This document shows, piece after piece, positions 6,316-63,471 of a DNA stretch of 64,000 nucleotides. Both the position numbers and the translations under genes were made by a program. The stretch covers positions 1 through 64,000 of the IMG/VR virus record IMGVR_UViG_3300044949_001245; one strand, 5' to 3'. The notes beneath the pieces are model-generated. The model ran no database searches, had not been told where the DNA came from, and saw only the letters and a list, made by a program, of their open reading frames with translations. Within the stretch, counting starts at the first letter, position 1. Every line of letters starts with the position of its first letter. This stretch comes from a virus.

Positions 6316-8796
6316 TTACACAAATTTTTCAATGAATATAAATCTTGCCCACTGTGGTCTTATGTCTATTGGAGTTGGAGTTGTAGAACCTCCAGCTGTT
6401 CCTGTTGTGCCACTAAAGGTATGAGAATGCGTATGGTCATCAGTGTTGTTACCACCGCCTAGTGGTGAACCTAAATTTCTTGTGCCCCCTCTACCATATT
6501 CCGCATCCCTATATGATGCGACTGACGTACCGCTGTCTCTCAAGTAAACTCTATGTCCGTGTGTTATTGAATTTGTAGTCCCACTGAACGTATGACTGTG
6601 TGCCGGCAACATGGCTGTCGTGATAGTAACTGAATTTGAACCTCCTGTAGTTCCAGGTGTTCCTGTTACAGTTCCCATCGGAAATCTATCAGTCATATTC
6701 AAAAATCCATCTACGCCATTAAGAACGTGCCAACCCCAAAAACCTTTTTTATTTCCACTTCCTTGTGGGTCAAATGCTGTACTTATATTAAGTGCTTTTG
6801 AACCCAACATACGCACAGTTCCTTTTGGAGTCAAGTCAGTATCAAATCTGGCTATCCAATTTCCTGTATCGTCAAAAGTACAAACGATGAATAGTCCTAA
6901 TCGGTGAGATTGAGTCACATCATCCGATGTGTTATTTCTTGCGTAATAAAGGTCATTCAGTGAAAAATCGTGAATCAATGTAAAGCTAGTTGGATTCACA
7001 TAATCTTGAACCAATCTTAATTTGAAAGTGGATAACGTAATCCATTGGTCAATATGAAGCCAAAACGTGTTCCCCTCTCTAGCACCAGTGGTCTTCAAGT
7101 TGATGAACATATCGGCAGTCATAGTAAGTCCTCCAATGAAGTGTTGATACTTTTTGTCAACACCGACCTCTAGGTTGAGAACTGGCGTTGATGGTGCCAA
7201 GGAAAGTGTGCGCACTCCGAATAAATCACCTGTTATGACATCATCTTGGAAGTTCTGAAATGAGTCTGGTGCTTCACAAACTTTGATAAATCCAAGATTG
7301 GAACTACCTATGTATGGAACTTGAGTTCTATCAATCGGCAATTTTAGGTTTCCATAATCATCGTATGAGTCTTCATCGTAATGACCTATTGGGTCATTCG
7401 GAAATACTAACCAATCAGTGTATGCTTCAAATACGATGTATCGGTACATCAAGTTGTATTTGTAGCATCCATCTAATGCCGGCAACTCAATTCTTGATAG
7501 CTGCGTGTTAATTGGAAATTCAAACGTGTGCTCTAAATTTGGCCAAGGAAACACTTCAGTGGTATTTGTATCTTGGTCTTGGTCATTTGTATCTAAAATT
7601 GCCCCATCACGTCTGGCTCTTATTTCAATTCTTTCATATGGTGGTGCTATAAATAACTCATCGGACAATCCGTAATCATCAGGGTCAAGAACATCTAGTG
7701 TCAGCACTATTTGAGTTCCTGTCTTGATACTTTCTGTAATTGTTCTCCAACTTCCATTTTTAGCATAAAGCCTCCAATTGTCGAAATCTCCTGAATTGAA
7801 GAATGATGTGTCTTTGAATGTACCCCCTAGTCCAATCAAAACAGACACTTTTTTTAGGCTTGGGTCAATAGTATAAACACTAAAACGCATACCCCAAGCC
7901 AGCAGAGCAATATTTTTTGCTCTTGGCTCATTGGGCTGTTGGTACTGAACTCCCTCTACACCTATCAGCTTGTTCACCAAACTCCTATCTACAAAATCAG
8001 TCCACCATTCGCCCCATGGTCTCCACCAATCATTTCTTTTATCTTCAACCAATATTGTAGTTCCATTGCTTTTTATCCTAGCAAGATAAAATTCTTCATT
8101 AGCAAGATAGCTTGGTTTAGTGTTCAAAGTGGTTTCAAGTACCAATTCATATTCAAAGTTGTCATATTGAAAGATGAGTTGGTCTGATACAGGCACTGGA
8201 TATCCTGGCGTGAAAGTCCCCACAACCGCAAATTGTAGATTGCTCTCAGCTGTAAATGAACCTTGTAATATACATGAAGTGTTGTTATTAACCGCCACGA
8301 CTTCATAATCAAGCGCATTGCCTGCCGTGGAGTTCAAAAAACGTATCTTGGAAGGGAAATTTGGTTGTCCACGTAAAATTTTTGTGAACTCCGTTCCAGT
8401 TCCGATGACATTACCTAGTGAATCAATTGAAACTGTTCCTAGTTCCCGAACACTGTATTTGTGTTTAACACGTAACCAATACCAAAGTGAATCAGCTGGT
8501 ATCATTACATCTACTGGGACTTCATTGACTACATAACGACCTCTGATATCAATTATCATCCCTGGATTGATTATCACTTTGTCGTAACAAGCAACTCCAA
8601 ATTTTGAAACATAAAATGCGTCTTTGGTTAGGATTGAACCTGTCTCAGGCAAATCTAAATCCTTTACAATACCATATGTTTTACTATTTGCCAGAACGTG
8701 TCTTCTGTACCCCCATTCGTCCAAAAACTGGTCATTTCGGTTGAGTTCAGCCACCTCCAAAAACAAATTTGAGTTTATCTTCAAATATCCACTCAT
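6316..8796 (-). CDS. Baseplate-attached tail fibre protein
   Basis: C-terminal collar-like segment (NMTDRFPMG...GGSNSVTITTAMLPAHSH) and repeated HSHTFSGTT HxH motifs typical of trimeric T4 gp12/gp37-type tips. Confidence 0.75.
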   Translation of the reverse strand: MSGYLKINSNLFLEVAELNRNDQFLDEWGYRRHVLANSKTYGIVKDLDLPETGSILTKDAFYVSKFGVACYDKVIINPGMIIDIRGRYVVNEVPVDVMIPADSLWYWLRVKHKYSVRELGTVSIDSLGNVIGTGTEFTKILRGQPNFPSKIRFLNSTAGNALDYEVVAVNNNTSCILQGSFTAESNLQFAVVGTFTPGYPVPVSDQLIFQYDNFEYELVLETTLNTKPSYLANEEFYLARIKSNGTTILVEDKRNDWWRPWGEWWTDFVDRSLVNKLIGVEGVQYQQPNEPRAKNIALLAWGMRFSVYTIDPSLKKVSVLIGLGGTFKDTSFFNSGDFDNWRLYAKNGSWRTITESIKTGTQIVLTLDVLDPDDYGLSDELFIAPPYERIEIRARRDGAILDTNDQDQDTNTTEVFPWPNLEHTFEFPINTQLSRIELPALDGCYKYNLMYRYIVFEAYTDWLVFPNDPIGHYDEDSYDDYGNLKLPIDRTQVPYIGSSNLGFIKVCEAPDSFQNFQDDVITGDLFGVRTLSLAPSTPVLNLEVGVDKKYQHFIGGLTMTADMFINLKTTGAREGNTFWLHIDQWITLSTFKLRLVQDYVNPTSFTLIHDFSLNDLYYARNNTSDDVTQSHRLGLFIVCTFDDTGNWIARFDTDLTPKGTVRMLGSKALNISTAFDPQGSGNKKGFWGWHVLNGVDGFLNMTDRFPMGTVTGTPGTTGGSNSVTITTAMLPAHSHTFSGTTNSITHGHRVYLRDSGTSVASYRDAEYGRGGTRNLGSPLGGGNNTDDHTHSHTFSGTTGTAGGSTTPTPIDIRPQWARFIFIEKFV

Positions 8797-8815
8797 GTCT
8801 TTACAATTTTTACTT

Positions 8816-10540
8816 TTATTGAACTAATAGCTGTATATCACTAACATTCTTTGTCAAATAGATTGGAATGAGCTTTTGTTCATACGGCAGTAAGTTCTCT
8901 TGAATTTTGTTTGTTATGTCATTATCACTATAATGGTCATTATTGTTCTTTAACCAATTCATTACCATCACATCACCTTGTACGAATTGTGGATTGACTA
9001 CGAATGGTCTGCGGTTGCGAAATGATAATATGTGTTTGCCTTTGATAAGTGGGCGCATTTTGAAATCATGTATTCTAATCTCCTCACCAGGTGATGCGCC
9101 CCTGAACTGGATGAAAGGCTTCACTAGTTCTATATTCTCAGTTGTGCTAAATTTCAAATTGTTTCCAATAACATTAGTCTTGTGAAATGGTGGTGATACA
9201 CTTGGAGAACCTGCTGAATAGATTATGCCCCTTATACTGTACCATTGACCTTGTATTCTGGTTGTATCATCAAAGCTATCCACAAAAAATCTATCTGAGA
9301 TGACTCCATTATCTATTCGTTGGAACGCTAGTGGTCTATATGCTCCATTTCGGTTGTATCCATGTACCCCGAAATAAAGTGTGCTCATACTCCCCAACTC
9401 TCTTTTTACTTTGAATGTGATTTCATAATCAATCTCTTTATCCACAATTATCAAATCCTCCCAATCAACAAGTGGTGGCGGTGAGTTCCATGGATATCCA
9501 AGTCCATACGTTCCAACTCCATCACTTCCAATAGACATACAATTCCATCCATTTGGGTCAGTGACTATGTTTACATAACTTCCCAATCCTTGTATTTCAT
9601 ACTTGGTTAAATCAACAAAATCATCAGTATTTTCCTCAGTCTTATTTATTTGCTTTGATTTGTAGTTTCCGTTGTATATCGGTGAAGAATGTCCTACGCA
9701 CCATCCATGTTTCTCTTTTTGAACGACATCTACTAAAAATTCATCATACCTATTTCGACACAAAATACGCAACCACTCGCCATCCATCGGCATAACGTAC
9801 CCGTCAAGCATAGTTGTGCCTAATTTTTGGTAAGTCATTTTTGTACCACGTCTGCGAATTTCATCATAAAAGTTCTTTGCTATCTCTTGAAGCTCAGTCA
9901 TCAAGACAGTGTCTTTACAAAACATCGCCCCTCTTTGCTCTAAATCCATTATCAAATACTTTCTTTTGTAAAGTATCTGGTCGAACTCGTTAGCAAAAGC
10001 AGACACAAAAGCCAAGAAACAAGAAACGGCATTCCAAAAACTCACGAAATCAGTATCATTAATTCCTGGCCCACGCTTGATAAATTCAGGCAAAATGCCT
10101 AGATTGTAGATTTTCTTTAGTAAGTTGTTACAGATGGAGGCAGTCAACATATCATTACAAGCCAAGTCTGCGAATATGCTGTCTAAAGTTGTCGTGTTGT
10201 TACAAATTTGGATTATTATGTTTCCGTTCAAAGTAATTCCTCCAAACTCCAACAGACCTGTATTGTCCGTTCCTGCTCTTTCGTATCTAAACTCCAAAAA
10301 CAATAAAGTGGTAACTGTTCCTGTAATGTTAGCCAAATTAGCATTAGTCAGAGCATCCCAGTTGGAGTAATTAACCCCATCCAGAGAATATCTAAATGTC
10401 CTAATGAAATACCTAGTTGGTGTTTCTCCAACTGTTACATCAGTGTATCCTGTTATGTTTACATTGCCGGCAAGTGCGCCTTGTGAGTACACAAAAAGAA
10501 CATCGCCAATCGCTGATAAAGTGTTACCTATTACTGCCAT
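8816..10540 (-). CDS. Baseplate wedge/structural protein
   Basis: 574 aa between baseplate J and the fibre gene; call from synteny. Confidence 0.6.
   Translation of the reverse strand: MAVIGNTLSAIGDVLFVYSQGALAGNVNITGYTDVTVGETPTRYFIRTFRYSLDGVNYSNWDALTNANLANITGTVTTLLFLEFRYERAGTDNTGLLEFGGITLNGNIIIQICNNTTTLDSIFADLACNDMLTASICNNLLKKIYNLGILPEFIKRGPGINDTDFVSFWNAVSCFLAFVSAFANEFDQILYKRKYLIMDLEQRGAMFCKDTVLMTELQEIAKNFYDEIRRRGTKMTYQKLGTTMLDGYVMPMDGEWLRILCRNRYDEFLVDVVQKEKHGWCVGHSSPIYNGNYKSKQINKTEENTDDFVDLTKYEIQGLGSYVNIVTDPNGWNCMSIGSDGVGTYGLGYPWNSPPPLVDWEDLIIVDKEIDYEITFKVKRELGSMSTLYFGVHGYNRNGAYRPLAFQRIDNGVISDRFFVDSFDDTTRIQGQWYSIRGIIYSAGSPSVSPPFHKTNVIGNNLKFSTTENIELVKPFIQFRGASPGEEIRIHDFKMRPLIKGKHILSFRNRRPFVVNPQFVQGDVMVMNWLKNNNDHYSDNDITNKIQENLLPYEQKLIPIYLTKNVSDIQLLVQ
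8825..8837 (-). promoter_or_regulatory. Candidate late promoter motif (ACAGCTATTA)
   Basis: Plus strand TAATAGCTGTATA, 29 nt upstream of the fibre ATG. Confidence 0.5.
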
Positions 10541-10893: not shown

Positions 10894-10896
10894 TTT

Positions 10897-12093
10897 TTAC
10901 AATCTTCTTAATACAGTTGCTTGATATGCAAAATCGCTTTCCGTTGGATAGTAAAATGGATTCAATGTTCCAGATATATTCTCCAAAACTATCCCTTGAA
11001 TGTTCATCATCACAAACCCTCTAAATCTTGGCAATTGACCTCTTGGAATATCCACATAAGTGTTCGGGAAAAACATATTGTCTATGACACGTCTAACTCC
11101 AGTTACTGCCTTAACCGCATTCACCAAGTCCATATTGTCTATGAAATCCCCATCTTTCCAAAATCTATGGTCTATCAATTTACTCAAATTTATTTGCGCC
11201 TGTTTACGAATTTCGTCAGTTGAAAATCCAGGTTCAATATCTACACGACAGCTAACATCTATGGGAAAGTAAGTCACATTGACGAACTTTATTCCATAGT
11301 TCAAAAGTCCATTCGGTTTGAACTCATTCATGTTTAGCCATTGGTCAGCTTTCAGCAAGAAATCTCCCAACTCTGATGGGGTGAAATTCGCTCCATTAAC
11401 ACTTCCGACACCTAGACATAAATCGCCCACGTTATCCAAGCCATAGTTGTAAACACGCAATACATTAGGATTGGACTTTCTGAGAACTTGTTCCATATAT
11501 TGTAGTGTTCCTCTGGCCAACACATTTATTTCTTCCTTGATGCGCTCTCTAAACATCTCATCATCCTCCGCATCCCTACCGCCAGTTGCCATGTACTCAT
11601 TTATACAGTATTCATGTCCTGATGGAATAGGGGCAACTTTGTTGATTGTCAAAGGATTGACGTTGGTAAATGAACCATTAGGTATGCTAGCAAGTTTCAC
11701 GTATGAAAAACCCTCTTGTGGTATGGTAACCATCTGCTGTACTGCGAAATCTACACCTTGTCCTGTGAATGTATGTATTCCAGGAATGTAAGTTGTACCA
11801 GGTGTGCCGGCAACACGAACATATGTAGAACTTCCTATTGCTGCCATCCTTGGAGCAACCCCCCTTAAATCCGCCATGGTGTCCAAATACGAACCAAACG
11901 CTGAATCAGGAAACAGGTGTGTTTCAATTACTGCGACATCCTTTAACACTTTCTGCGCCAATTTGGCCGCACCAAAAGCTATTCCGTTGAGAACTGAACC
12001 CTCAGACACTTTAGTGACTAGGTTTGTCTGATTGAGCAAAGTTTCTACAAAAATCTGCTTCAATTCATCTACTGGTGTTATTCTTGTAATCAT
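10897..12093 (-). CDS. Baseplate J-like wedge protein
   Basis: SAFGSYLD...RGVAPR, ATGGRDAEDDEMFRERI and VKAVTGVRRV are baseplate J family signatures. Confidence 0.9.
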   Translation of the reverse strand: MITRITPVDELKQIFVETLLNQTNLVTKVSEGSVLNGIAFGAAKLAQKVLKDVAVIETHLFPDSAFGSYLDTMADLRGVAPRMAAIGSSTYVRVAGTPGTTYIPGIHTFTGQGVDFAVQQMVTIPQEGFSYVKLASIPNGSFTNVNPLTINKVAPIPSGHEYCINEYMATGGRDAEDDEMFRERIKEEINVLARGTLQYMEQVLRKSNPNVLRVYNYGLDNVGDLCLGVGSVNGANFTPSELGDFLLKADQWLNMNEFKPNGLLNYGIKFVNVTYFPIDVSCRVDIEPGFSTDEIRKQAQINLSKLIDHRFWKDGDFIDNMDLVNAVKAVTGVRRVIDNMFFPNTYVDIPRGQLPRFRGFVMMNIQGIVLENISGTLNPFYYPTESDFAYQATVLRRL

Positions 12094-13019: not shown

Positions 13020-13029
13020 TGTTTAATTA

Positions 13030-13767: not shown

Positions 13768-13768
13768 A

Positions 13769-18909: not shown

Positions 18910-20816
18910 TTTGAACCATTTTTTCTAACACCTTTGGTCGTTGGACTCACAGGCAAATTTCCATATGAATTAGTAACATTTACTTTTACAGTGTTGTTAG
19001 TCAACCAATTTTCTAGGCTTGTCGATATTGTTCCAATTATGGACTGAAATCCAGATAACATCTCACTCATAGCACTATTCATAGTGCTTGCTTCTGACGC
19101 AGCGAACTCCTTACTCAACGTACCTTTTCGCCCTTTCTGAATTGGCTTCTTTCCAGTCATATAGCCAGAGAAATCACCACTCGTCATGGCTCTTTCATAA
19201 AGCTCCATATCATACTCCGACTGAGGATTGAAGAATGAGTATAAAAGGTCATCCCTAGCCATTTGGTTTCCTTGCGTCCAATCACCCGACATTTTCATGA
19301 ACTGTTCGATGTATTTCGGGTCATCTGAATTAAATCGAACAAATCTGCGTAACTCAGCAGGATTGTATGCTAAATCTGGGTGTGCTCTCTTGGCTGCCTC
19401 ATACTTCATTAACATCAAGTTGTCGCCACCACCCTCTCCTAGTCCTTGAATAGTTTGGGCAAGAAAGTCACCAGATTTTTCTCCTTTTTGAGAAAGTCCT
19501 ATTGATTCAAAAGCAGCCAACATCCTCAATGAAGAGTCAACATCGACAATATCACGTTTGGTACGTTGAATACTCATCAATGTTTGTTGAGTTTGTAACT
19601 TTTCAGTCAAAGTTGCCAAATCACCCTCTTTCAAACTACTTTCGTTGATTGAGGTCAACACATTTAATACGTCAAGTGAAATATCAGTTGCCTCCCTCTG
19701 CTGAGTTGTGAACCTTTCAAATGAGTTAAAAATGCCGGCATCAGCACCGAATGCTTTATTGAATTGTAAATCCTCTAGTGTTCGCCTTAAAATGTCTGGG
19801 CCAGCTATTCCTGTTTCACGACCTTTTATTTCAGCTGCTTTCAAAAAGTCCTGTGGATTCAACCCCATTGACGTGGCCATCCCAGTTCCGTAATTCCCTT
19901 GTGCTTGGTCTATCAGGCTAAACATTTGAGTTGAACCTGAGTAACCACTCCCTCTCAATGAACCAACTCCTTGACCAGCAGCGTAAACTTGGTCACTTTG
20001 ACTTAAAAGGGCATAGGCTGCTGCTATCACCGATGCAGTTGCTGTTGCGCCCTTTGACCCCCCTAGTAATCCACCCGCAGCCCTACCAGTCTGTATGCTG
20101 GTTGCTGCCAAGTTAGCACTGGCTATTGATTGAGCCAACTGTGAGTAATTTATTCCTGTTCCATCCTCACCGCCTTTACCCCCTCTTGCTCCACCGCCAT
20201 CCATCTCACGCATGCGTTCTTTGTTGGCAGCAATCCTTGCGTTTATATCATCTAAATCCTCTTGACTTTGGGCAGTCAATCTTTGTTTTTGTAGGTCTTT
20301 ATTTTCTTGAACTAAAGTTCCATACAAGCCACCTTTACCACCCTCTTCAAACTCTTTCTTATCACGTTGCGACCTCTCCCTGTCTAATTTACGCTTGTCC
20401 ACCATCTCACGGACAATCAAGCGCAAATGCATGTTCATTTCCTTTTCAATTTCAGCCAACTCTTTCTGCTCTTGAGATGTAGCTTCAGATTGTGCTCCTT
20501 CAAAAAGTTCTTTTTGCTTCTTGAATTCTTTTTTGGAAATTTCGCCCCGACTGAATTTTTCCTCTTGCTCCTTGAATTCAGCAAGATTGGATTGACGCAC
20601 TTCAGCGTACTCCGACTTGACTTGCTCTTGTTTTGCTCTCAGTGCACCTTTTGCTTCACGCTCAACTGTAACCTTTTGCTCAGTTGGAGTCATTTCAGAC
20701 AATCGGTTGAGGTCTGTTACATCCCTACCTAGTTGTTGAACCTTTTGGCGCAACGCATCTAGCTGAGAACCCAATCCGTCATCACGACCTCTTATATTTA
20801 CATTAACTTCAGCCAT
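18906..20816 (-). CDS. Tape measure protein (putative)
   Basis: Coiled-coil N-terminus with Gly/Ala-rich helical body; follows tube and chaperone genes. Confidence 0.7.
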   Translation of the reverse strand: MAEVNVNIRGRDDGLGSQLDALRQKVQQLGRDVTDLNRLSEMTPTEQKVTVEREAKGALRAKQEQVKSEYAEVRQSNLAEFKEQEEKFSRGEISKKEFKKQKELFEGAQSEATSQEQKELAEIEKEMNMHLRLIVREMVDKRKLDRERSQRDKKEFEEGGKGGLYGTLVQENKDLQKQRLTAQSQEDLDDINARIAANKERMREMDGGGARGGKGGEDGTGINYSQLAQSIASANLAATSIQTGRAAGGLLGGSKGATATASVIAAAYALLSQSDQVYAAGQGVGSLRGSGYSGSTQMFSLIDQAQGNYGTGMATSMGLNPQDFLKAAEIKGRETGIAGPDILRRTLEDLQFNKAFGADAGIFNSFERFTTQQREATDISLDVLNVLTSINESSLKEGDLATLTEKLQTQQTLMSIQRTKRDIVDVDSSLRMLAAFESIGLSQKGEKSGDFLAQTIQGLGEGGGDNLMLMKYEAAKRAHPDLAYNPAELRRFVRFNSDDPKYIEQFMKMSGDWTQGNQMARDDLLYSFFNPQSEYDMELYERAMTSGDFSGYMTGKKPIQKGRKGTLSKEFAASEASTMNSAMSEMLSGFQSIIGTISTSLENWLTNNTVKVNVTNSYGNLPVSPTTKGVRKNGSK

Positions 20817-30117: not shown

Positions 30118-30130
30118 TAATACCTGTTAC
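30118..30130 (-). promoter_or_regulatory. Candidate late promoter (GTAACAGGTATTA) for the major capsid gene
   Basis: Exact 13-mer, 46 nt upstream of the capsid ATG. Confidence 0.65.
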
Positions 30131-31707
30131 TGTACAATGTTTACGTTATGCTCTGATTTTAATCTCGCAATCACATTGTTACTCAGCGGTGAACCAGCCT
30201 CAAAACTCATCAAGGCTTTGGCAAATTCTTCATCATAACCGCCTTTTGCGATTGTAGCAGCATCAAGTACATTAAGGATTGCCCCTCTGTGTTCGCTGGT
30301 ATGAAGAGTGGCATTGCCGGCAGCACGACCTCCTTTTTCAAGATTGTCCGCTCCAAAGTTGCGCTCAACATAACCTTTAGTGATAGACTTGCGTCCAGTG
30401 GGCTGTGTAGAAAGTTCCTCTACTAATTCAAGTGCTTTTTGTAAGTCCTCTCTAGTAGCACGCAACTCTCTTTCTTGGCGCCACATTTTGCCTTTTAGCA
30501 ATTCTGTAGCATCCATCTGTGCCTTTACTAATTGTGCAAGGGCACGTACATTTTGCGTATTTGAACTTGTTGACTCGTTGATAGCTTTGATAATGTCAGT
30601 TTGGAAAGATTTTTTCACATACTTCATCCCCTTTTCTTCATTGTCCTCATCTTCATCTTGCTCCCCCTCTTCAGAGTTCATTTCATCTTCATTGTGAGAA
30701 TCAACGTCAATGTGAATTTCTTTTTTCAGACCTTTGCCTTTTTTCATTTCGTCATCGGCAGCATCTTTTTTCTTTTTCTTGGCATCATAACCATACTGCT
30801 CTTTCATGACTTTTGCAGCAACCTCTTCATCTGACTCTTCGTCATCTTCATCGGCATCATTGCTTTTTGGCTTTCCCATGGACTTTTTCGCTTTCTCCAA
30901 AAATGGATTTTCGTCCATATTTTCCAAACCCAGAGCACTCATGGCTTTCTGAAGGTCTTTGGTTTCGATTGTTTTTCCTTTTAACATTGCTTGTTCTATT
31001 TTAATTAACAGATTGTTGAATTGTTCTGCTTTTTCAATACTAATACCTGGGAATGTGTCAAAAATTTTATCATACCTTTGCTCCTCAGTCATATTCTTCA
31101 CCTTGTACCCATCTACGCTGGCGGGCATTAGCGCACGACCATCGCCTGTATCTAGTGTCTTTTTTGTATCAACATCATCCTCTTCATTCTTCTCCATATC
31201 GTAATCACACCCCTTTCCTTTAATAATATCAGCGAATGTTTGAGGATTTTTAGGCATGTGTGTAATAGCCAATCCTGTTATCTTTGCTTGCTTTACTATT
31301 TTAGGATTGGTAACGTCACGCTCAATAACAGTTCCCTCAATACTGTACCCTAGTCTGCGTGTCTTTGAGTCTTTCTGGAGAACTTCCGCAAGTTGATAAA
31401 CCTCTTTGGCTAAATCACTATTTGGATACAAATCAGTTTCTACATAAAACCCATCCTTGCGAATTTCTGCTTTGCATGGCTCACCTATGATTGTGGCTGG
31501 GCTGTTCTTGGCTTGGTGATGCCAATTCACAACTCCTGACTTTTTGAAATCTGAAATGTCAAACCCAGATGGGTCAAGAAATTCACCATCAGCATCTTTA
31601 TCCATAGTGGAGGCAATACCCCCTAGTCTCATCACTTCCTTTCCATTCTTGTCTTTCCCCTTACTTATTTCAACAGGGCACCAGAACTTAAATTTTTGCT
31701 CAGCCAT
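30127..31707 (-). CDS. Prohead protease with fused scaffold-like C-terminus
   Basis: GIAST..KDADGE, VNWHH, LGYSIEG, AITHMPKNP; long acidic and coiled-coil tail. Confidence 0.9.
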   Translation of the reverse strand: MAEQKFKFWCPVEISKGKDKNGKEVMRLGGIASTMDKDADGEFLDPSGFDISDFKKSGVVNWHHQAKNSPATIIGEPCKAEIRKDGFYVETDLYPNSDLAKEVYQLAEVLQKDSKTRRLGYSIEGTVIERDVTNPKIVKQAKITGLAITHMPKNPQTFADIIKGKGCDYDMEKNEEDDVDTKKTLDTGDGRALMPASVDGYKVKNMTEEQRYDKIFDTFPGISIEKAEQFNNLLIKIEQAMLKGKTIETKDLQKAMSALGLENMDENPFLEKAKKSMGKPKSNDADEDDEESDEEVAAKVMKEQYGYDAKKKKKDAADDEMKKGKGLKKEIHIDVDSHNEDEMNSEEGEQDEDEDNEEKGMKYVKKSFQTDIIKAINESTSSNTQNVRALAQLVKAQMDATELLKGKMWRQERELRATREDLQKALELVEELSTQPTGRKSITKGYVERNFGADNLEKGGRAAGNATLHTSEHRGAILNVLDAATIAKGGYDEEFAKALMSFEAGSPLSNNVIARLKSEHNVNIVQ

Positions 31708-42239: not shown

Positions 42240-42968
42240 TTACCCCTTTACTATTGGAATTACACTGCTACCTCCTAATGGTTCATAAAACTGTCCGTAA
42301 GTCCAATAAAATGTATTGCCATCAAAAACCCAAGTCCAAATATCTACTGATTGTGGTGACGTTGGAATAAATGAAATCTTGGAAACGGCTTGCTCCACCG
42401 CTGCTTTCTGAAGATTGTCAACTTCTTGTTCCAGTAAATTTTCAAATTGAAACCGCCTGTTACCATTTATTACACGACTGTTTATTGGTGGGGAAATACT
42501 GTATGTGTCACCTTTAGTTTGTCTCCCATCAATTATCAAGGTTCCATAGTCCCCATCCGATGCGTTGTTTATGTCAAGCTGGTAGTTGAAAATCTCATCA
42601 TCATCTTGAAAAATAATTTTAGCATTGTACCCTAGATAGTAACTCCAAGTGTATAAACCAACTCTATCTACATTTATTGACTGGAGTTGTAGTATCTGGA
42701 AAGCCTTTGGTATGACTGCCGGCACTTGTGACTCACAAACATTAAACCACTTACCAATAAACATACCCTGAAACGACATTGATGTTTCATCCATCGGTGC
42801 GGCAGTTGTAATTATTGCTTGATAGCATCTACTCAACCCCTCAGTATTTCGCACGGCTGAAAAATTTGAACCATTAATATCAGTGGCCCATCTTATGTAG
42901 GTGAATGCTTGTTTAACTACAGTTTCCGTACAAGGACAACCACAATCCTTTTGTCTAGTTTCTGCCAT
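42240..42968 (-). CDS. Putative virion protein with fibre-type YIRWA.D..G..F repeat
   Basis: FTYIRWATDINGSNFS; homologous to segments of the upstream ORF. Confidence 0.65.
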   Translation of the reverse strand: MAETRQKDCGCPCTETVVKQAFTYIRWATDINGSNFSAVRNTEGLSRCYQAIITTAAPMDETSMSFQGMFIGKWFNVCESQVPAVIPKAFQILQLQSINVDRVGLYTWSYYLGYNAKIIFQDDDEIFNYQLDINNASDGDYGTLIIDGRQTKGDTYSISPPINSRVINGNRRFQFENLLEQEVDNLQKAAVEQAVSKISFIPTSPQSVDIWTWVFDGNTFYWTYGQFYEPLGGSSVIPIVKG

Positions 42969-47613: not shown

Positions 47614-48048
47614 TCAATTTTGTTTATCTAATAACTGTCGCTTGAACTTATTTATGTGCTTGTTGATGAAAGTTATTTCGATGTCGTCATCAGATGAATG
47701 ATGAATGAAAATGCGCCATGATTTCATTTTCACTATCATTTCATTTTCACCGCCTGAACTATCTGGTATTGAGTACGTTTCAGATGATTTTGATGAGTAA
47801 ATGAAATTGACTACATCCATGAAACACTCTACATCATCTTGCTCCGAAAATGAAAAAGTGACTAAACTGTTAACATCAGTGTTCAACAATTCAGCCACTC
47901 TAGTGTAATGTTCTACTTCCGTATTGGTCAGACTAAATTCACTTACTGCTTTGTAACGTAAACTTCTGTTGTTTGCGGACTGAACACACTCCGTTGCTTT
48001 CCCTCTCCAATTTTCATCTTCCAATACTTCTGGAACTCGCATAGCCAC
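47614..48048 (-). CDS. Hypothetical protein
   Basis: 144 aa; the start overlaps the upstream gene by about 100 nt and is uncertain. Confidence 0.55.
   Translation of the reverse strand: MAMRVPEVLEDENWRGKATECVQSANNRSLRYKAVSEFSLTNTEVEHYTRVAELLNTDVNSLVTFSFSEQDDVECFMDVVNFIYSSKSSETYSIPDSSGGENEMIVKMKSWRIFIHHSSDDDIEITFINKHINKFKRQLLDKQN
47629..47641 (-). promoter_or_regulatory. Candidate late promoter motif (ACAGTTATTA)
   Basis: Plus strand TAATAACTGTCGC, 37 nt upstream of ATG 47592, at the start of the portal operon. Confidence 0.5.
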
Positions 48049-48983
48049 ATTTCTATTTGGTGTAATGTAATTTTACCCTCTTTTGGTGTAACTATTTTAT
48101 ATTTGTTATTTTCTTTATCCCAATCCAAGTATTTGAAATCACCTATCTCAGCAAGTTTAGCCTTGGCCATGTCACGCAACATGTAAATTCCTTTTATCTG
48201 TTCGCCCTTACTTAATGACGGAAAAATTAACCGAATGCCGATGGAAGCACCTGGTCCAACATTCGTAAAATCATCTTGGTCAAACTTCATCAGTTGTATT
48301 CCTGAATATCTTGGCGCATATGTAAAGTCCTGATAAAATTCATGAGCAATAAAATCAGCAACTGCCGGCAATGTTTTCAAATAGCTTATTAACTCCTTTG
48401 GCTCTTTTGCGCTCAATAGCAGTTTGTTTATTTTTGGGATAGCAGAATGTATTGACGGAACAACTACTTGCGTGTAGCACCAATCTCTTTTCGCACCAGG
48501 ACAAGCCTGTGAATTTATCAGATACGCATTTGTATAAGGATTGTTTCCAGTTTCTCTGTATCCGTATATCAACTCAGCCCACTCACCCTTATCGTACTGG
48601 TCATAGCTTGGAAACATACCATCAAAAGATTTTTTCTGGCTACCTATCCACTCAAATGTTTCAGGGCAGTTAAATATCCTAAAAAGCATGATTTTCCAAA
48701 CCAAGTCCTTTCGACTATTTGGCTCCATCAAAACGTGCTTTATTTGCCACTGCGAATGTCTGTCCAGTTCCCGAAAAACATTTGTGAATTTATGATTGGA
48801 CATAAATGGGTCTTGGCTCCATGGTCTTGATTCATTCTTTACAAATCTGCGGTGCCATATTTCTTGTCGCTCAAACATGGTTTGAAAAAATAAACCTAGA
48901 TTTTCATCATCCACTTCCTTGTCCGATGATGGTAGGGCATTCCCCCAAGACTTCATACCATAAGCTGTTCTAAATTCTTCCAT
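47943..48983 (-). CDS. Alpha-glutamyl/putrescinyl thymine pyrophosphorylase clade 1-like (amino acid:DNA transferase superfamily) DNA hypermodification protein
   Basis: ERQEIWHRR..PWSQDP...KFTNVFRELDR, FRIFN, YTNAY, FIAHEFYQD, VGPGA..GI, IEMWLCEFQKY. Confidence 0.85.
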   Translation of the reverse strand: MEEFRTAYGMKSWGNALPSSDKEVDDENLGLFFQTMFERQEIWHRRFVKNESRPWSQDPFMSNHKFTNVFRELDRHSQWQIKHVLMEPNSRKDLVWKIMLFRIFNCPETFEWIGSQKKSFDGMFPSYDQYDKGEWAELIYGYRETGNNPYTNAYLINSQACPGAKRDWCYTQVVVPSIHSAIPKINKLLLSAKEPKELISYLKTLPAVADFIAHEFYQDFTYAPRYSGIQLMKFDQDDFTNVGPGASIGIRLIFPSLSKGEQIKGIYMLRDMAKAKLAEIGDFKYLDWDKENNKYKIVTPKEGKITLHQIEMWLCEFQKYWKMKIGEGKQRSVFSPQTTEVYVTKQ

Positions 48984-52239: not shown

Positions 52240-52289
52240 AATTTTGAAATGTTTACAATTTTGAAAGTAACATACTAAACTTTGTAAAT

Positions 52290-53309
52290 TTAGTATGTTC
52301 TATGAAGTGTAAAATTCTTACATTGGATTGAGTCATGTATTTCAGTCTGACCCCATTGCGCTGTTATTGACAAGGTATTTGGAATTGTTGTATCCAAAGC
52401 TTCAACGCTGCTAAACATCATCCCTTTTAGTTGTCCTTGGTTATCGGTGTATAATATAGAACCAAAACAACTGATTTTCCCAGACACACCTAATTCATTG
52501 ATTGTAAATGACATTCTAATCTGAAATGTTCCATTAGTGGCATGACTCATTGACATTTCACCACTACTAGCCAAAAGTTGCGTGCCCGATGTTATGTTTA
52601 TTTTAAGTAAATGTCCGTTTTGAGTTGACAATATTCCGCTCAAAATTGCTTCAAATGAATCACCGACCTTAAATCCATCTGCCCGCACGTACAAACTCCC
52701 TACCCCTGCCCCAATCAGTTCGCCCGCAACTGTAGTGTTAGCAATTATTTGACCATCTGTTGTTTGAGCAAAAAGTCCTGTGTTTAGTGAGTTCAGAAAA
52801 TGCCAACCCTTATTTCCAAAAGCATCGGTTGAATATACTTTATTTGGGTCTGGCAATTCCTCATCAGCAACCAGCTGTATGTACCCTCCATCATCCTGAA
52901 TAGAATTTTTTTGAGCAGTGACGTCACGCTTGTTTTGCCACAAATCTGTAATGTCGGCTACAATTTGACTTATCAAACGCTCATCAGGAATGTATGGCTT
53001 ATTAAAAACTTGATTATTTCCATCTGTTGAATTCCAATCAACAGGCTGCTCTTTTAATGAATATCCAACACCTAGACTGCGCCAATAACTTGCGTCTGTT
53101 GGTGGTATTGAATCATTGTTCGCTATACAAACATAAATCTGTCCTCTGTACCAAACTAAATCCCCGATGAGATATGGGTTGCCAGTAGCATCTGAATGGT
53201 CAGCTGAAAATGGAAGTGCGGTCAGAACGACAGTACCACCGCCACCGCCACCGCCATCTGACTCATCTTTTAATCGCAATCTGTTTAACAGATAGTCAAA
53301 AAATATCAT
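52290..53309 (-). CDS. Putative virion protein with carbohydrate-binding (CBM5/12-like) motif
   Basis: Poly-Gly linker, then YLIGDLVWYRGQIYVC...PP...YW. Confidence 0.6.
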   Translation of the reverse strand: MIFFDYLLNRLRLKDESDGGGGGGGTVVLTALPFSADHSDATGNPYLIGDLVWYRGQIYVCIANNDSIPPTDASYWRSLGVGYSLKEQPVDWNSTDGNNQVFNKPYIPDERLISQIVADITDLWQNKRDVTAQKNSIQDDGGYIQLVADEELPDPNKVYSTDAFGNKGWHFLNSLNTGLFAQTTDGQIIANTTVAGELIGAGVGSLYVRADGFKVGDSFEAILSGILSTQNGHLLKINITSGTQLLASSGEMSMSHATNGTFQIRMSFTINELGVSGKISCFGSILYTDNQGQLKGMMFSSVEALDTTIPNTLSITAQWGQTEIHDSIQCKNFTLHRTY

Positions 53310-56236: not shown

Positions 56237-56261
56237 GAACTAATTAACTATGAAATACTTA

Positions 56262-57944
56262 CTAAAGAAATTTGAACTTGAATCCAGTGGTGACTTTTTT
56301 CGCTGCTATTGATGTAAGCCATAACGCCATAGCTTGGTCATCGTGTTCTCCGACACCCTCCAATCCTTTATCAGTCCATGTAACAGATGAAAGTTCCATA
56401 GCAAGTGAATCAGAAATGTCTATTGACTCCTGATTGCCTCTTGGTATCCGTATTTTGCCACGCTCAAACAAAATTGCTAGTCCAGGCAATCCTGCCTTTA
56501 GGTCATATTTGTTGCTTCCTGTCGTATGACCCTCGACAGGCAATCCAGCCCTCTCTGACTCTTGTACAAAAATCTGTTGGAATACGTTATTCTCCATTAC
56601 CATTATATCAGGCTGAAACGATGCGTTGATTTGTTTTATGACTGCTAGTTGTTCAGCAAAAGACTTGCCCCGAAATCTAGTAACATTCATCAACCACATA
56701 TTCTCATTCTCATCTACTCCAGCGGTGATGATGACTGTGTAGTCAGCCCCAACTGAGCTGGAAATCGAAAAGTCAATACCAGTCACCACCCTATCGAATT
56801 TCATTTTGTAAGCTGTTCTAGCACGTACAAATGTGTAGTCCTCCATCCTCACATATGCCCTTTCAATTACATCTTGAGGGAAAATTGATGACTCATTGGT
56901 AACTGGCCTACATAAATTTTCCCTTGAAAAGATTATGTTGCCCTGTGTTGACCTCTTTTCCATCAACTCCTTAAATCCCCAACGCTCACGCCATAGTATG
57001 ACTCCATTCGGAAATATGGCTGGATATTCCCTCACGTGCCACCCCTCCTTGCTTTTCAAATCTCCATATAGGTCATTAGCGTGGAATGGAGTTCCAACCA
57101 CTATAACTTGACCTTTGGGCACAATCATATTCATGATTACAGCGTGAAAATAATCTATGGACTTTTTTCTTTGAACCGAACTGTAAATCACGTTGTCCTT
57201 TAATCCATCATCAACCACAATATATCCAGGGTGAGCACCACGTACTGATGAACCAAAGCCTTTGGTTGTTATCCTTGCTCCGTTTTTACAAACTATATCA
57301 GTTTTTGCCCATCCATCGTTCCGACCTGGAAATAATCTTTCACGCAAATCATCATTTTCTTCAATCGTGCTTTTCAAAATATCCAAAAGGTCAACCGCCT
57401 GTTGTAATGAAAATGAAAATAGAAATCCACGCTTGGATAATGCTAAATCATGGCGTGGTCTGGAGAACCCTGTGACTGGCTGGTATCGGTATAACTTCCA
57501 AGCCAGATACGCATTACTCCAATAGAATGATTTTCCGTGGTCACGTGCGGCAATTACGTTGAGTTTGTTGTAACGCATCGCCATATCTCCCCATTCCAGA
57601 TGGTGCCAGTTCATTTCAAACTGCGGCATTTTACTCAAAATGAAATAGGTCAGATTTTCAATACACAAAGTTTCCTCTATGGTCTTTGTGAGTGTATCGA
57701 AATAGCCTAGTTTGAGCTGTAGTTGGTTTTGCTTTCCGTAAATTACATTGAAAACCTCTTCCAAGATTATGGAATAAATCTCATCCACATCCTTTTCGTA
57801 ACCTCCAAACAACTCCTTGGTGCCGGCATCATCCAAGTTGTTGATAATCTCATCCACAATACGAAATGCCTCATCAATTTTTTCAAACGACAAGGCATTT
57901 TGGTATTTGGAAATGATTTTTAAGTCCTCTTGTGATATGTTCAT
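56262..57944 (-). CDS. terL: Terminase large subunit
   Basis: AARDHGKS, VRGAHPGYIVVDD, VVGTPF; nuclease motifs GIDFS, DYTV, HDDQAMALW. Confidence 0.95.
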   Translation of the reverse strand: MNISQEDLKIISKYQNALSFEKIDEAFRIVDEIINNLDDAGTKELFGGYEKDVDEIYSIILEEVFNVIYGKQNQLQLKLGYFDTLTKTIEETLCIENLTYFILSKMPQFEMNWHHLEWGDMAMRYNKLNVIAARDHGKSFYWSNAYLAWKLYRYQPVTGFSRPRHDLALSKRGFLFSFSLQQAVDLLDILKSTIEENDDLRERLFPGRNDGWAKTDIVCKNGARITTKGFGSSVRGAHPGYIVVDDGLKDNVIYSSVQRKKSIDYFHAVIMNMIVPKGQVIVVGTPFHANDLYGDLKSKEGWHVREYPAIFPNGVILWRERWGFKELMEKRSTQGNIIFSRENLCRPVTNESSIFPQDVIERAYVRMEDYTFVRARTAYKMKFDRVVTGIDFSISSSVGADYTVIITAGVDENENMWLMNVTRFRGKSFAEQLAVIKQINASFQPDIMVMENNVFQQIFVQESERAGLPVEGHTTGSNKYDLKAGLPGLAILFERGKIRIPRGNQESIDISDSLAMELSSVTWTDKGLEGVGEHDDQAMALWLTSIAAKKVTTGFKFKFL

Positions 57945-58495: not shown

Positions 58496-58498
58496 ATA

Positions 58499-59662: not shown

Positions 59663-59663
59663 T

Positions 59664-60179: not shown

Positions 60180-60394
60180 AAAACTTTTATTACATTAAAT
60201 GGATTCAGACAAAAACAATCGCCATCATCCTTGCGTATTAAATAGATGTCTTGTGGCGAAACAAATAGCACATCTCCATTTTTATCAAATACTCTGTCTG
60301 TTGATTGTACTTTGTCTAACACTACACCTGTTCCCTCTACTCTTTCATTTTCAATGTAGTATGAAAATGCTATTTTCTTTCCGATGATGCTCAT
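60176..60394 (-). CDS. Hypothetical protein
   Basis: 72 aa; ATGA-coupled. Confidence 0.65.
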   Translation of the reverse strand: MSIIGKKIAFSYYIENERVEGTGVVLDKVQSTDRVFDKNGDVLFVSPQDIYLIRKDDGDCFCLNPFNVIKVF

Positions 60395-60858
60395 ATGTTT
60401 GATGTTTTAGTTTGTTGTTCCGTATTGGTATCAGTGCTTCCAAATCCACCCTCACCTCTTTCGCTTTCCTCTAGTTCTTCAACTTCCTCAAGCTCAATAA
60501 ATGGTATCGGTTGGATGATTATTTGACCGACTTTCTCCCCTACCTTGTAGATGTCTTTACCATGTAGGTTTGCTCCTGTGACTTGAAAGCGCAAGCAAAT
60601 TTCTCCCCTATATCCTGAGTCAATTACTCCTACGCAGTTTTTCAAAATCAAATCTTTTTTTGTTACTGAACTTCTTGCGTAAAGCAACCCAACATACCCC
60701 TCTGGAATTTCCATAGCCAGACCAGTGTGGTACTGAACGAACTTTCCGTTTGAGTCCATATGAATTTGGATAGCTGTTAAGTCCATGCCGGCATCGCCCT
60801 TTTTAGCATAGGTTGGTATCACCGCCCTATCATCTAGTTTTTTAATTTTTATTTTCAT
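60391..60858 (-). CDS. dut: Trimeric dUTPase
   Basis: DAGMDL, TGLAMEIP, RSS, GVIDSGYRGEI, ERGEGGFGSTD; start at ATG 60858 (MKIKIKK). Confidence 0.96.
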   Translation of the reverse strand: MKIKIKKLDDRAVIPTYAKKGDAGMDLTAIQIHMDSNGKFVQYHTGLAMEIPEGYVGLLYARSSVTKKDLILKNCVGVIDSGYRGEICLRFQVTGANLHGKDIYKVGEKVGQIIIQPIPFIELEEVEELEESERGEGGFGSTDTNTEQQTKTSNI

Positions 60859-61130
60859 CTCAGATATTTTTTGTCTAACACTACCGCATTGCCTACAATA
60901 CAATCATTGAACCTCCGTGTCTTTTCATAGAACACTTGCGTGGCTATTTCATTGAGTGGTTTGTTCAACAATTTTCCCTCTTCATTAACCACCATTAGGG
61001 TGTTCTCATCAAGCCAAACTATTTCGATGTATCCATCGACAGCCTTTTGAAGAAATTCCAGTGATGCTTCTTTGTCGTCATTTTTTACGACCTCGACACT
61101 TCCGTCAGTTTTGATAATTTTTGCTTCCAT
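60855..61130 (-). CDS. DUF3846-like protein
   Basis: LEFLQKAVDGYIE...VVNEEGKL...LNEIAT...IVGNAV. Confidence 0.8.
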   Translation of the reverse strand: MEAKIIKTDGSVEVVKNDDKEASLEFLQKAVDGYIEIVWLDENTLMVVNEEGKLLNKPLNEIATQVFYEKTRRFNDCIVGNAVVLDKKYLR

Positions 61131-61132
61131 TT

Positions 61133-61384
61133 TCAGAGAATGTTTATGTGTTCTAATTGCGCCATTTTGTTTTTTAGTTCAGCAAATTTCTTATCTCTCA
61201 ACTCCTGTGTCCTGAACGGAAACACCCAATCTTTCAAAACGAACTTCTCAGGCAAATCCTCATTCAGCACTATACAAAAATCTATTTGCTCAGATTGTTC
61301 GTTCCAAATCTGTTTCCTAGTAACTCTGAAAACTGCCATAACGTCAAACAGTTCCCCTTCAAACTCCAAAAGTGTCTTTGCCAT
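61133..61384 (-). CDS. Hypothetical protein
   Basis: 83 aa tiled ORF. Confidence 0.7.
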   Translation of the reverse strand: MAKTLLEFEGELFDVMAVFRVTRKQIWNEQSEQIDFCIVLNEDLPEKFVLKDWVFPFRTQELRDKKFAELKNKMAQLEHINIL

Positions 61385-61703
61385 CTTGATTGTTTTTTAT
61401 TTGTTCTTTAGAATTTTTGTTGAAATCATCGGTATGATTTTTATTGAAAGTATCAACAAACCAAGCGCAATCCTTTTTGTCGCTTTGGTCACAACCGCTA
61501 TGCTGGTCTGGGCCAGTTTGTCTATTACAACGCTTACAAATTTTATTCATGTTATCGGTATTTTTTTCATGTATCATAGAAATCCTTGCCGGCAAAACTT
61601 CGATTAAATTACATTCATCGCAACATTCACCCTCTTCCATAACTGGCTCTGGGTTGTTCCCATATCCACTCATTTCCTTATTACAAATACAGCACTTATA
61701 CAT
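61359..61703 (-). CDS. Cys-rich (zinc-binding) hypothetical protein
   Basis: CCIC...GNNPEP...CCDECN...CKRC. Confidence 0.7.
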   Translation of the reverse strand: MYKCCICNKEMSGYGNNPEPVMEEGECCDECNLIEVLPARISMIHEKNTDNMNKICKRCNRQTGPDQHSGCDQSDKKDCAWFVDTFNKNHTDDFNKNSKEQIKNNQDGKDTFGV

Positions 61704-62046
61704 TTGATTTTGTTTTTCGGTTTCTCTTTAATAATTCTGCCCTAGTTATTGCTTCCAGATTGGAAATATCGTCATTGTATCTATTTCCATCTATATGATA
61801 CAACACATATCCTTTCGGCAACTTTCCGTTTGTTTTTTCCCAAATTACCTTTGGTCTGCGCTGCCTTTCTTTGTTTCCTATCCATACGTGTACGCAATCA
61901 TTTTTTATGACTTGTACTCCACCTTTCCATGATGGATGATTTTCGCCAACATGATTTTCTCCGCTTTTGAATTGTGTTTGTGGTGATGGATTGAATCCAC
62001 TCAAACCCTTATTCCAAGGAACATCGCCTTTGTTAAATTTTCCCAT
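61696..62046 (-). CDS. HNH endonuclease-like protein (NUMOD-type N-terminus)
   Basis: KGDVPWNKG, GENHPSWKGG, HIDGNRYNDDISNL. Confidence 0.85.
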   Translation of the reverse strand: MGKFNKGDVPWNKGLSGFNPSPQTQFKSGENHVGENHPSWKGGVQVIKNDCVHVWIGNKERQRRPKVIWEKTNGKLPKGYVLYHIDGNRYNDDISNLEAITRAELLKRNRKTKSNV

Positions 62047-62047
62047 A

Positions 62048-62452: not shown

Positions 62453-62461
62453 AATTTTAAT

Positions 62462-62710: not shown

Positions 62711-62715
62711 GACTC

Positions 62716-63471
62716 TTAATTTTTATTCAAGTTGATAATTACTTCCCAAAACGATGCCGGCAATTTTACGTTGCTCATCACAATACAATCCCTAAACATC
62801 GGTGCTATTTGTTCTGGCGTGTATCCAGCTATTCCGCAGCCTATCGCTGTGACTAGAAATGTCTTGCCTGTATTGGTTCTGGCGAACTCCTTAAACCTAT
62901 GCACGAACACCGAAATGTCCTCCAGAGACATTTGATTTTTGGTAGTCAAATCTACAGTGGGTATGGCGTATGTGTTTCCAGACATCCCCTCTTCCAAACC
63001 CCATTCTGCTCCGAAATCTTCATGCGCTATTCTTGCCGCTCCACCTAGATGATGACCTTGAAGATTGGAGCCAAAAACGAATACCTCATTAACATCCAAC
63101 TCCGTAATTTCATCAGAAACAATCCTGTCGTCATTAGCGAACAAATTCAAATCCATCTTCCGTAAATTGTACGGAACAGCATCCAAGTACCAGTCTATGG
63201 TGTAACCGACCTTTTCCAATTCCTTTTGAAGTTTGGCGCATCCCTCATAGGTTTCTATGTCCTCTTCACTGAACCGCTCCAGAACTTTACTAACCACGTC
63301 AGGTATGGCCTCAGGGCACTCAAATAAATCGTGCCCTATGACCTTGAAATCTACATTCGTCAAATCGTAAACTTGACCCTCAATAACTTCGCCCTCCACG
63401 TGCGTTACCACTTCTGTTTCTGTCCTGCCATCTAGGCTGAACTCAACTATATCTCCGACTTGTGCTCTCAT
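62716..63471 (-). CDS. Protein with C-terminal macrodomain-like (A1S_2505-type) domain
   Basis: VFVFGSNLQGHHLGGAARIA...YAIPT...FLVTAIGCGIAG. Confidence 0.8.
   Translation of the reverse strand: MRAQVGDIVEFSLDGRTETEVVTHVEGEVIEGQVYDLTNVDFKVIGHDLFECPEAIPDVVSKVLERFSEEDIETYEGCAKLQKELEKVGYTIDWYLDAVPYNLRKMDLNLFANDDRIVSDEITELDVNEVFVFGSNLQGHHLGGAARIAHEDFGAEWGLEEGMSGNTYAIPTVDLTTKNQMSLEDISVFVHRFKEFARTNTGKTFLVTAIGCGIAGYTPEQIAPMFRDCIVMSNVKLPASFWEVIINLNKN

Follow-up and report, generated by a model that had tools for sequence, protein, structure and literature searches.

The genome of an uncultured myovirus has lost almost all its CCGG sequences, and all but one of those that survive lie within the eight-base palindrome TGCCGGCA, which is itself present at about 25 times its expected number. 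The DNA that we have analyzed (the window) is 64 kb in length and forms the first part of the 88,603-bp IMG/VR record IMGVR_UViG_3300044949_001245, which is classed as linear and is 89% complete as judged by CheckV. The purge of CCGG is accompanied by an exclusive context for the survivors, by the gain of the octamer in this lineage, by a gene for a 5-hydroxymethyldeoxyuridine (5-hmdU) DNA kinase, and by a rule across the clade that palindromes composed only of G and C survive beside T. We consider it probable that CCGG is restricted, and that TGCCGGCA is the one context in which modified thymines shield it on both strands. We infer from the sequence that the T is modified and that its modification is what protects the site, and the kinase would set which thymine-derived bases become hypermodified.

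The octamer and the loss of CCGG

There are 12 copies of TGCCGGCA in the window, all of them correctly located in the initial annotation of this DNA. Dinucleotide shuffles give a mean of 0.31 copies and a maximum of 2, with none of 100 reaching 12, in agreement with the earlier claim that the octamer lies far above chance. The GC content of the window is 38.9%, rather than the 36% that had been estimated. CCGG occurs 12 times where 58.4 are expected and GCCGGC 12 times where 2.06 are expected, and all 12 of each lie inside the octamer, just as had been noticed by eye. The full record contains 17 copies of TGCCGGCA (about one per 5.2 kb), 17 of GCCGGC and 18 of CCGG. Seventeen of the 18 CCGG are thus in the octamer, the single outsider lying at genome position 85185 within TGCCCGGCA, and every one of the 17 GCCGGC has T before it and A after it.

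We have compared these counts with a null in which the protein sequence and codon usage are held fixed (codon-preserving shuffles, n = 200), a count that the initial annotation had called for. For the full record this gives 0.69 copies of TGCCGGCA (maximum 3) against the 17 present, 80.4 CCGG against 18, and 4.8 GCCGGC against 17. The earlier argument that a protein motif is inadequate as the cause is upheld by these values. When 300 shuffles were made with a set of open reading frames (ORFs) missing one octamer site the expectation was 1.64. The other nine NCCGGN classes are each found once or not at all, with about 75 expected in the codon shuffles. The product of the half-site counts predicts 1.68 octamers, even when the motif's own copies are counted. 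No other 8-mer in the genome is as strongly over-represented as TGCCGGCA, and the excess of the octamer goes beyond composition (17 against 0.31–0.69). In a census of maximal G/C runs and their flanks it is an outlier at 17 against 0.78, while the next words are enriched 2- to 6-fold. Chance, composition or a protein motif are excluded as causes by the dinucleotide and codon shuffles, the half-site product, the codon-context tables described below and the G/C-run census. Nothing is conserved past the 8 bp of the sites; a repeat or mobile element is excluded as the source, since the flanks have nothing in common.

All 17 copies are in coding sequence and fall in two reading frames, as had been said of those in the window. 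Ten are read as nnT GCC GGC Ann (Ala-Gly) and seven as nTG CCG GCA (Leu/Val-Pro-Ala), with six of each in the window. The genes that bear them are unrelated, encoding tail proteins, the terminase, a dUTPase, a DNA polymerase, a sigma factor and the kinase, and there is no pattern in the location of the octamer along them. The sites of TGCCGGCA are as follows.

6601..6608, ORF 6316-8796 (-), tail-fibre-like: TTG CCG GCA (Leu-Pro-Ala)
7477..7484, ORF 6316-8796 (-), tail-fibre-like: TTG CCG GCA (Leu-Pro-Ala)
10465..10472, ORF 8816-10540 (-): CTT GCC GGC AAT (Leu-Ala-Gly-Asn)
11805..11812, ORF 10897-12093 (-): GTT GCC GGC ACA (Val-Ala-Gly-Thr)
19733..19740, ORF 18906-20816 (-): GAT GCC GGC ATT (Asp-Ala-Gly-Ile)
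30315..30322, ORF 30127-31707 (-): GCT GCC GGC AAT (Ala-Ala-Gly-Asn)
42717..42724, ORF 42240-42968 (-): GTG CCG GCA GTC (Val-Pro-Ala-Val)
48363..48370, 5-hmdU DNA kinase gene 47943..48983 (-): TTG CCG GCA GTT
57821..57828, large terminase gene 56262-57944 (-): GAT GCC GGC ACC (Asp-Ala-Gly-Thr)
60786..60793, dUTPase gene 60391-60903 (-): GAT GCC GGC ATG
61587..61594, small Cys-rich ORF 61359-61703 (-), ..EVLPAR..: coding, not intergenic
62755..62762, ORF 62716-63471 (-), A1S_2505-family non-structural protein: TTG CCG GCA TCG
Beyond the window, five sites at genome positions 67705, 69386, 76943, 82213 and 87950

Codon choice at these positions is strongly dependent on context. Where an Ala-Gly dipeptide lies in a T..A setting it is encoded as GCC GGC in 10 of 17 cases, and elsewhere in none of 87. 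Pro-Ala following ..TG is CCG GCA in six of nine cases and elsewhere in none of 34, the seventh site of this kind being in the small ORF 61359-61703, outside the tally. GCC is otherwise used in about 17% of cases between T and G, and GGC in about 16% between C and A, so that GCC GGC would be expected in about 3% of cases, compared with the 59% seen.

Exemption of TG-containing palindromes and the predicted thymidine modification genes

Other words are avoided in this genome. In the codon shuffles 244 copies of GATC, 71 of CGCG and 57 of TTTAAA are expected, and one, none and none are present. The proposal in the initial annotation that CCGG is purged by restriction (18 copies against about 80) fits with these companion depletions. 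The avoided sets differ among relatives. If we term the genome of this phage G000 and two of its relatives G001 and G002, TTTAAA is found 0 times in G000 and 125 times in G001, and GATC 1, 9 and 107 times in G000, G001 and G002 respectively.

The GC-only palindromes that remain share a common flank. All 40 GGCC in this genome have T on the 5′ side or A on the 3′ side, where 39.8 of an expected 110 would lack both. Of the 86 GCGC, 82 are similarly T-flanked. The same is found in G001 (36/36 for GGCC and 40/40 for GCGC) and in G002 (22/22 for GGCC). GGCC is present in 19 metagenome loci of the clade, and in 17 of these each copy is T-flanked (27/27 in L050, for example), the exceptions being L059 (0/1) and L060 (5/6). 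For palindromic hexamers the distinction lies in the dinucleotide TG. For the 16 with TG the median observed/expected ratios are 0.91, 0.87 and 1.01 in G000, G001 and G002, compared with 0.14, 0.28 and 0.49 for the 48 that lack it (Mann-Whitney p = 1.9e-4, 1.7e-3 and 3.3e-4), and 38 of these 48 have a ratio below 0.4. No exemption comparable to that of TG was found for TC, TA or TT in palindromic hexamers.

The habit of capping with T reaches past restriction-type palindromes, as GCCG, which is not a palindrome, follows a T at 49 of its 53 occurrences on the plus strand (in G001 at 21 of 29) and the genome is depleted in G/C runs of seven or more.

Two predicted genes would bear directly upon the modification of thymine.

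47943..48983 (-), 5-hmdU DNA kinase (5-HMUDK): Pfam PF18723 HMUDK_hel, E 9.6e-51, 173 bits against a cut-off of 25
Genome 85237-86490, outside the window, thymidylate-synthase-family protein of 417 aa: PF00303, E 1.8e-23

A six-frame search for PF18723 gave the kinase match at E 2.1e-52, and none of 14 control cellular genomes matched. The kinase is present in eight of nine clade records searched, including G001 (where it is 83% identical), G002, G004, G005 and three gut-metagenome members, and is lacking from the most distant one. Searches with tblastn find relatives of it in 419 phage records, those of ViI-like and M6-like phages among them. Some homologues carry the GenBank labels aGPT-Pplase1 or ‘alpha-glutamyl/putrescinyl thymine pyrophosphorylase clade 1’, and it appears that HMUDK_hel and aGPT-Pplase1 name one family. 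The nucleotide-pool genes encode a dUTPase and an HD 5′-deoxynucleotidase-like protein, and the PF00303 match alone cannot separate a hydroxymethylase from a methylase. As judged by their families, the predicted kinase, thymidylate-synthase-family protein, dUTPase and HD protein would form the upstream part of a thymidine hypermodification pathway. Such a pathway is described in the available text of PMC8989533 for phages M6, ViI, phiW-14 and SP10.

In the mechanism that we propose, this 88.6-kb myovirus would probably replace thymine with 5-hydroxymethyluracil, and the 5-hmdU DNA kinase pathway would hypermodify a sequence-defined subset, namely bases in 5′-TG-3′ steps. Restriction of CCGG by its hosts would then leave the word in a single context, T-GCCGGC-A. 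There the GCCGGC core is adjoined by a TG step on each strand, and the modified base at position −1 of GCCGGC (−2 of CCGG) on each side would block the nuclease. A T directly before CCGG creates a TC step and not a TG step, and thus the nearest shield of the TG type is TG-CCGG, of which the symmetric form is TGCCGGCA. The octamer would therefore be the sole symmetric shielded context for CCGG, with T at −1 of a NaeI/NgoMIV-type hexamer on both strands.

The initial annotation had suggested that the surviving sites are protected by an overlapping methylation or a bound protein. Protection remains the best reading of the data, and methylation is not its probable agent, as no methyltransferase was found and a 5-hmdU kinase is present. 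There is no PF00145 match in a six-frame search of the genome, and no methylase or Vsr family among the 60 of some 100 ORFs scanned with Pfam, the remainder being mostly small or structural.

Published digests are consistent with a role for TG. In the passages available from Flodman et al. 2019 (PMC6449724), TG and TC are over-represented in the resistant sites of M6, ViI and phiW-14 DNA. The DNA of phiW-14 resists NaeI and NgoMIV wholly or in part, a flanking TG (“e.g., tGCCGGC”) is mentioned as a possible contributor to resistance, and unpublished evidence is cited that the M6 kinase modifies TG. Phage thymine dioxygenases with a preference for NTC or NTG are described in the available text of O’Toole et al. 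2026 (PMC13229309).

Two Bacillus phages, YungSlug and Eyuki, whose records both name B. thuringiensis kurstaki as host, provide a natural control. YungSlug has the kinase (E 1.1e-54), and all 52 GGCC in its 100 kb are T-flanked, 35 of them as TGGCCA. Eyuki has no kinase match and encodes ThyX, and in 41 kb it contains no GGCC, compared with the 65 expected from base composition. The contrast is what shielding by a modified T beside the site predicts.

A number of observations weigh against the proposed mechanism. TGCA (44 against 233) and TGATCA (0 against 23) are avoided in this genome, although they contain or abut TG, and thus TG does not shield everything. One-sided TGCCGG is never found while one-sided TGGCC is tolerated, so that a two-sided shield must be assumed for the CCGG core. 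No family could be assigned to the ORFs beside the kinase (46228-47592 and 47614-48048) as a downstream transferase. In the kinase-less Eyuki all 42 CCGG are T-flanked (TCCGG/CCGGA), through avoidance of CCNGG and RCCGGY words, and a context-limited CCGG can therefore arise without the kinase. In the sister phage G004 (the IMG/VR record behind locus L008) CCCGGA is absent where 14.3 are expected, which fits avoidance of RCCGGY and CCSGG. Tolerance predicts about one octamer (0.7 from the codon shuffles, 1.7 from the half-site product), and 17 are present. Finally, G001 has no TGCCGGCA despite the 83% identity of its kinase, so shielding alone does not make the motif.

The avoidance of TGCA and GATC could reflect either an enzyme that is unblocked by the modification or a modification-dependent nuclease. 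TGCA-core words and TGATCA are avoided both here and in G001. In the window there are 39 TGCA sites, and GATC is found at 15072 only. G002 tolerates both words, with 235 TGCA and 107 GATC.

The CCGG contexts of Eyuki and G004 bring in an alternative, in which several host systems of the CCGG family (CCGG, WCCGGW, CCSGG, RCCGGY and others) jointly spare TGCCGGCA and no modification is involved. Eyuki speaks for it directly, as its CCNGG and RCCGGY words are all at zero and its surviving CCGG contexts lie about 2-fold over the dinucleotide expectation. Its 41-kb locus L083 (NC_028944.1 18728-60068) has no GGCC, GATC, CCAGG, CCTGG, CCCGG or CCGGG, a set of missing words in which several restriction specificities of the host are cleanly recorded. 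In G004, which carries the kinase, 146 of 147 CCGG read as TCCGG on one strand or both, and no palindromic hexamer ranks above TCCGGA (92 against 26.9, or 3.4-fold). We had considered this to be a parallel case of shielding, but have downgraded it since Eyuki gives a similar CCGG pattern without a kinase; the contexts in G004 fit RCCGGY and CCSGG avoidance and may need no shielding. Context-limited avoidance may, as a general side effect, leave the surviving contexts in 2- to 3-fold excess. The octamer stands far above this at 25-fold, and restriction specificities alone leave its excess unexplained. An enzyme cutting RCCGGY would moreover remove GCCGGC itself. The loss of GCCGGA (0 against 13.1) lies outside the listed specificities, and would need a plain CCGG cutter, which would cut TGCCGGCA too. 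Nor would restriction alone explain the TG exemption across 16 hexamers, or the 52/52 and 0 GGCC of two phages with the same recorded host name. We regard this alternative as improbable.

Lineage-specific gain of the octamer

The relatives of this phage that we have examined comprise 24 IMG/VR loci of about 20 kb, found by their terminase at 45–89% identity, and five whole records of 60–99 kb. GCCGGC is absent from all 24 loci and from all five whole records, and 19 of the 24 loci have no CCGG of any kind. Because none of these relatives contains GCCGGC, comparison of the sequences indicates that the octamer is a lineage-specific gain on a background already purged of CCGG. The earlier suggestion that it might serve as a host fingerprint is correspondingly weakened, as close relatives are without it. 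Scans of IMG/VR and JGI revealed no relative nearer than 89–90% terminase identity, and a protein that is 96% identical to the terminase does exist (P0001, the first of a series P0001–P0009 that runs from 96 to 83% terminase identity).

G001 is collinear with the phage genome at 66–78% nucleotide identity, and has no CCGG in 90 kb. Eleven of the 17 octamer positions can be aligned with it, and at each G001 departs from the motif by one to several bases. At position 10465 it has CTA GCT GGA ACT where CTT GCC GGC is found here, a difference of three synonymous changes, one of which makes the flanking T. At 48363 G001 has CCC for proline, and a single synonymous change (CCC to CCG) yields the octamer. 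Elsewhere amino acids are altered.

The excess of the octamer is a second phenomenon, beyond escape from restriction. Its number exceeds tolerance by 10- to 25-fold and most of the synonymous opportunities have been used, from which positive selection on the octamer may be inferred. We would place this as a second layer on the mechanism above, in which the 8-bp DNA word is itself selected in this lineage; our leading guess for its role would be a recognition site for a dimeric DNA-binding factor. It is possible, though we put it forward tentatively, that the octamer is a positively selected, modification-dependent element (a self-mark, a loading site or a protein-titrating site) that could exist only because the modified flanks hide its core.

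The same observations could be accommodated if TGCCGGCA were chiefly the recognition site of a homodimeric protein of phage or host, with about one site per 5 kb being selected and the purge of CCGG a separate matter. This overlaps the second layer just described, and the candidate binders would be a regulator, a nicking or recombination enzyme, a loader of the modification machinery or a titrated host factor. It accounts naturally for an octamer that stands 25-fold over codon shuffles as the single outlier among G/C runs, that takes up most synonymous opportunities in two frames, and that has been built in one lineage by several changes from the G001 sequence, those in flanks and amino acids included. 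No candidate binder is apparent, however; among the genome-specific ORFs the only assignments are to an endolysin and a tail-fibre-like protein. There is no conservation past 8 bp and no pattern of position within genes, and relatives with the same gene set have no sites. A recognition site also leaves unexplained the T..A flanks of every GCCGGC and the matching flank rule of TGGCC and TGCGC. As the chief explanation we think it rather unlikely. The 339-aa ORF 52290-53309 was considered as a genome-specific binder and set aside; it resembles tail-fibre or receptor-binding proteins, and has no match in Pfam, PHROGs or NCBIfam.

The phage, its probable host and related systems

Ninety-nine of the 101 ORFs lie on the minus strand. 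PHROGs and Pfam searches identify a tail sheath, large terminase, portal protein, large DNA polymerase, SbcC/Rad50-like protein, Mre11-type phosphoesterase, RecA-like protein, helicases of DnaB, UvsW and UvrD types, primase, RNase H, dUTPase, a sigma-factor region-2 protein and two cell-wall hydrolases. The hydrolases lie at window positions 39895-40770 and 48970-49461. One is an endolysin with PG_binding_1 and Amidase_2 domains that is not found in G001 or G002, and the other is a glucosaminidase-domain protein adjoining the kinase. A putative glycosyltransferase pair at 35952-38029 matched no family. Directly upstream of the octamer-bearing Cys-rich ORF 61359-61703 there is a 116-aa ORF (window 61696-62046), partly conserved in G001, in which an HNH-endonuclease-like motif (..YHIDGNRYNDDISNLE..) can be read by eye from the translation. 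Some terminase relatives of about 890–907 aa (P0036, P0043, P0056 and P0065) contain intein or homing-endonuclease families (PF05204, PF05203 and PF14528), and are intein-bearing terminases within the clade.

Near-identical DNA is found in runs from lake water, freshwater, bioreactors, sludge and wastewater (24 rows from 20 studies, among which the source sample may be included). A bioreactor strain of about 97% identity (X5) has some 1 kb of other sequence in place of window 51352-53246. The genome-specific 339-aa ORF noted above, with its resemblance to tail-fibre or receptor-binding proteins, lies in the replaced stretch, which may be a host-range cassette.

The closest cultured relatives by terminase are Bacteroides phages, at 35% identity, and relatives of the genome-specific endolysin at 46–60% identity are found mostly in Bacteroidota metagenome-assembled genomes (six of eight loci by record title). 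From these two relationships the host is probably a member of the Bacteroidota.

The initial annotation had offered a HIP1-like palindrome as an alternative. HIP1 is the highly iterated palindrome GCGATCGC of cyanobacteria, and palindromes like it are accompanied in their genome by a cognate DNA methyltransferase. By analogy, a host or phage methyltransferase specific for GCCGGC or the octamer, together with repair of the very-short-patch type, might convert near-cognate words into TGCCGGCA. The likeness is real, in that both are GC-rich palindromes of 8 bp with a 6-bp restriction-type core, over-represented by at least an order of magnitude and dispersed through coding sequence in more than one reading frame. 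None of the deamination neighbours TGCTGGCA/TGCCAGCA is found here against 2.2 expected, but they are likewise absent from the motif-free G001 (0 against 2.1), and the transition neighbours of TCCGGA, the analogous word in G004, show no depletion (79 against 65.9). The present motif moreover belongs to a phage and not a cell, at the density of about one per 5.2 kb given above. It has no cognate methyltransferase that we could find, neither a C5-methylase in six frames nor a methylase or Vsr family in the ORFs scanned, and close relatives lack it.

The genomes examined from the candidate host phylum show no such excess of the octamer. In 401 Bacteroidota genomes, among which the actual host may not be included, TGCCGGCA makes up at most about 38% of GCCGGC (28 of 73, in G035; tables read by eye), compared with 100% in the phage, and in the five genomes with endolysin relatives the fraction is 0.13–0.19. 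Enrichment in host genomes was considered on account of densities of up to 177 per Mb, and rejected when these were traced to the 55% GC content and abundant CCGG of G277. In a 32-kb sample of this densest genome 7 of 418 CCGG are in the octamer. Densities across the phylum follow GC content and total CCGG. Since the actual host is perhaps outside the sample these comparisons weaken the HIP1-like explanation and no more, yet on all the data it is highly improbable and the earlier suggestion is not supported. Nor is the octamer an oriented, strand-biased and host-abundant word like the Chi recombination signal; a palindrome cannot be oriented. For a packaging or recombination signal more broadly, which the initial annotation had also mentioned, the data neither lend support nor tell against it.

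It is useful to set the reading that we prefer, shielding by modified thymines, beside known systems. As in other cases of restriction-site avoidance by phages, many 4- and 6-bp palindromes are depleted with respect to a codon-preserving null (GATC, CGCG, TGCA, GGCC, CCGG and TTTAAA). Here, by contrast, the avoidance is context-dependent, words adjacent to or containing TG are exempt, and one exempt word is enriched 25-fold. Like the 5-hmdU hypermodifying phages M6, ViI, phiW-14 and SP10, this one encodes 5-HMUDK and a thymidylate-synthase-family enzyme, and the pattern in its genome matches both the preponderance of TG/TC in resistant sites and the comment on a ‘tGCCGGC’ flank in the published passages (PMC6449724). 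It differs in being an uncultured and probably Bacteroidota-infecting myovirus. The TCCGGA excess of G004 arises in the same clade with the kinase present, but there the T lies immediately beside the core, a flank on one side is tolerated, and the excess reaches just 3.4-fold.

Each of the elements here (restriction avoidance, thymidine hypermodification, iterated palindromes) is already known. A genome-wide footprint of modification specificity in the sequence did not appear in the portions consulted of the literature on thymidine hypermodification. Among the full-text matches listed for TGCCGGCA, which were primers, cohesive ends and the like, there was no report of it as an iterated motif, and no comparable motif was found in the literature on palindrome over-representation in phages. 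Within the searches made, two things looked new: an exemption from palindrome avoidance that is specific to TG and extends across the genomes of kinase-bearing phages, and the lineage-specific octamer enriched inside that exemption.

If the proposed shielding is correct, the specificity of a base modification could be read from the restriction-type words that a phage genome tolerates. Both DNA modification and its dinucleotide context might then be deduced in uncultured phages from sequence alone, by the palindromes that survive only beside TG, and metagenomic phages could be screened for type and specificity of modification without chemistry. YungSlug and Eyuki are a clean natural experiment of this kind, with every one of 52 GGCC T-flanked where there is a kinase and no GGCC where there is none. 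A modification-dependent, phage-borne iterated palindrome would, if true, be a new kind of genomic signal, and the octamer might bear on why HIP-type palindromes accumulate.

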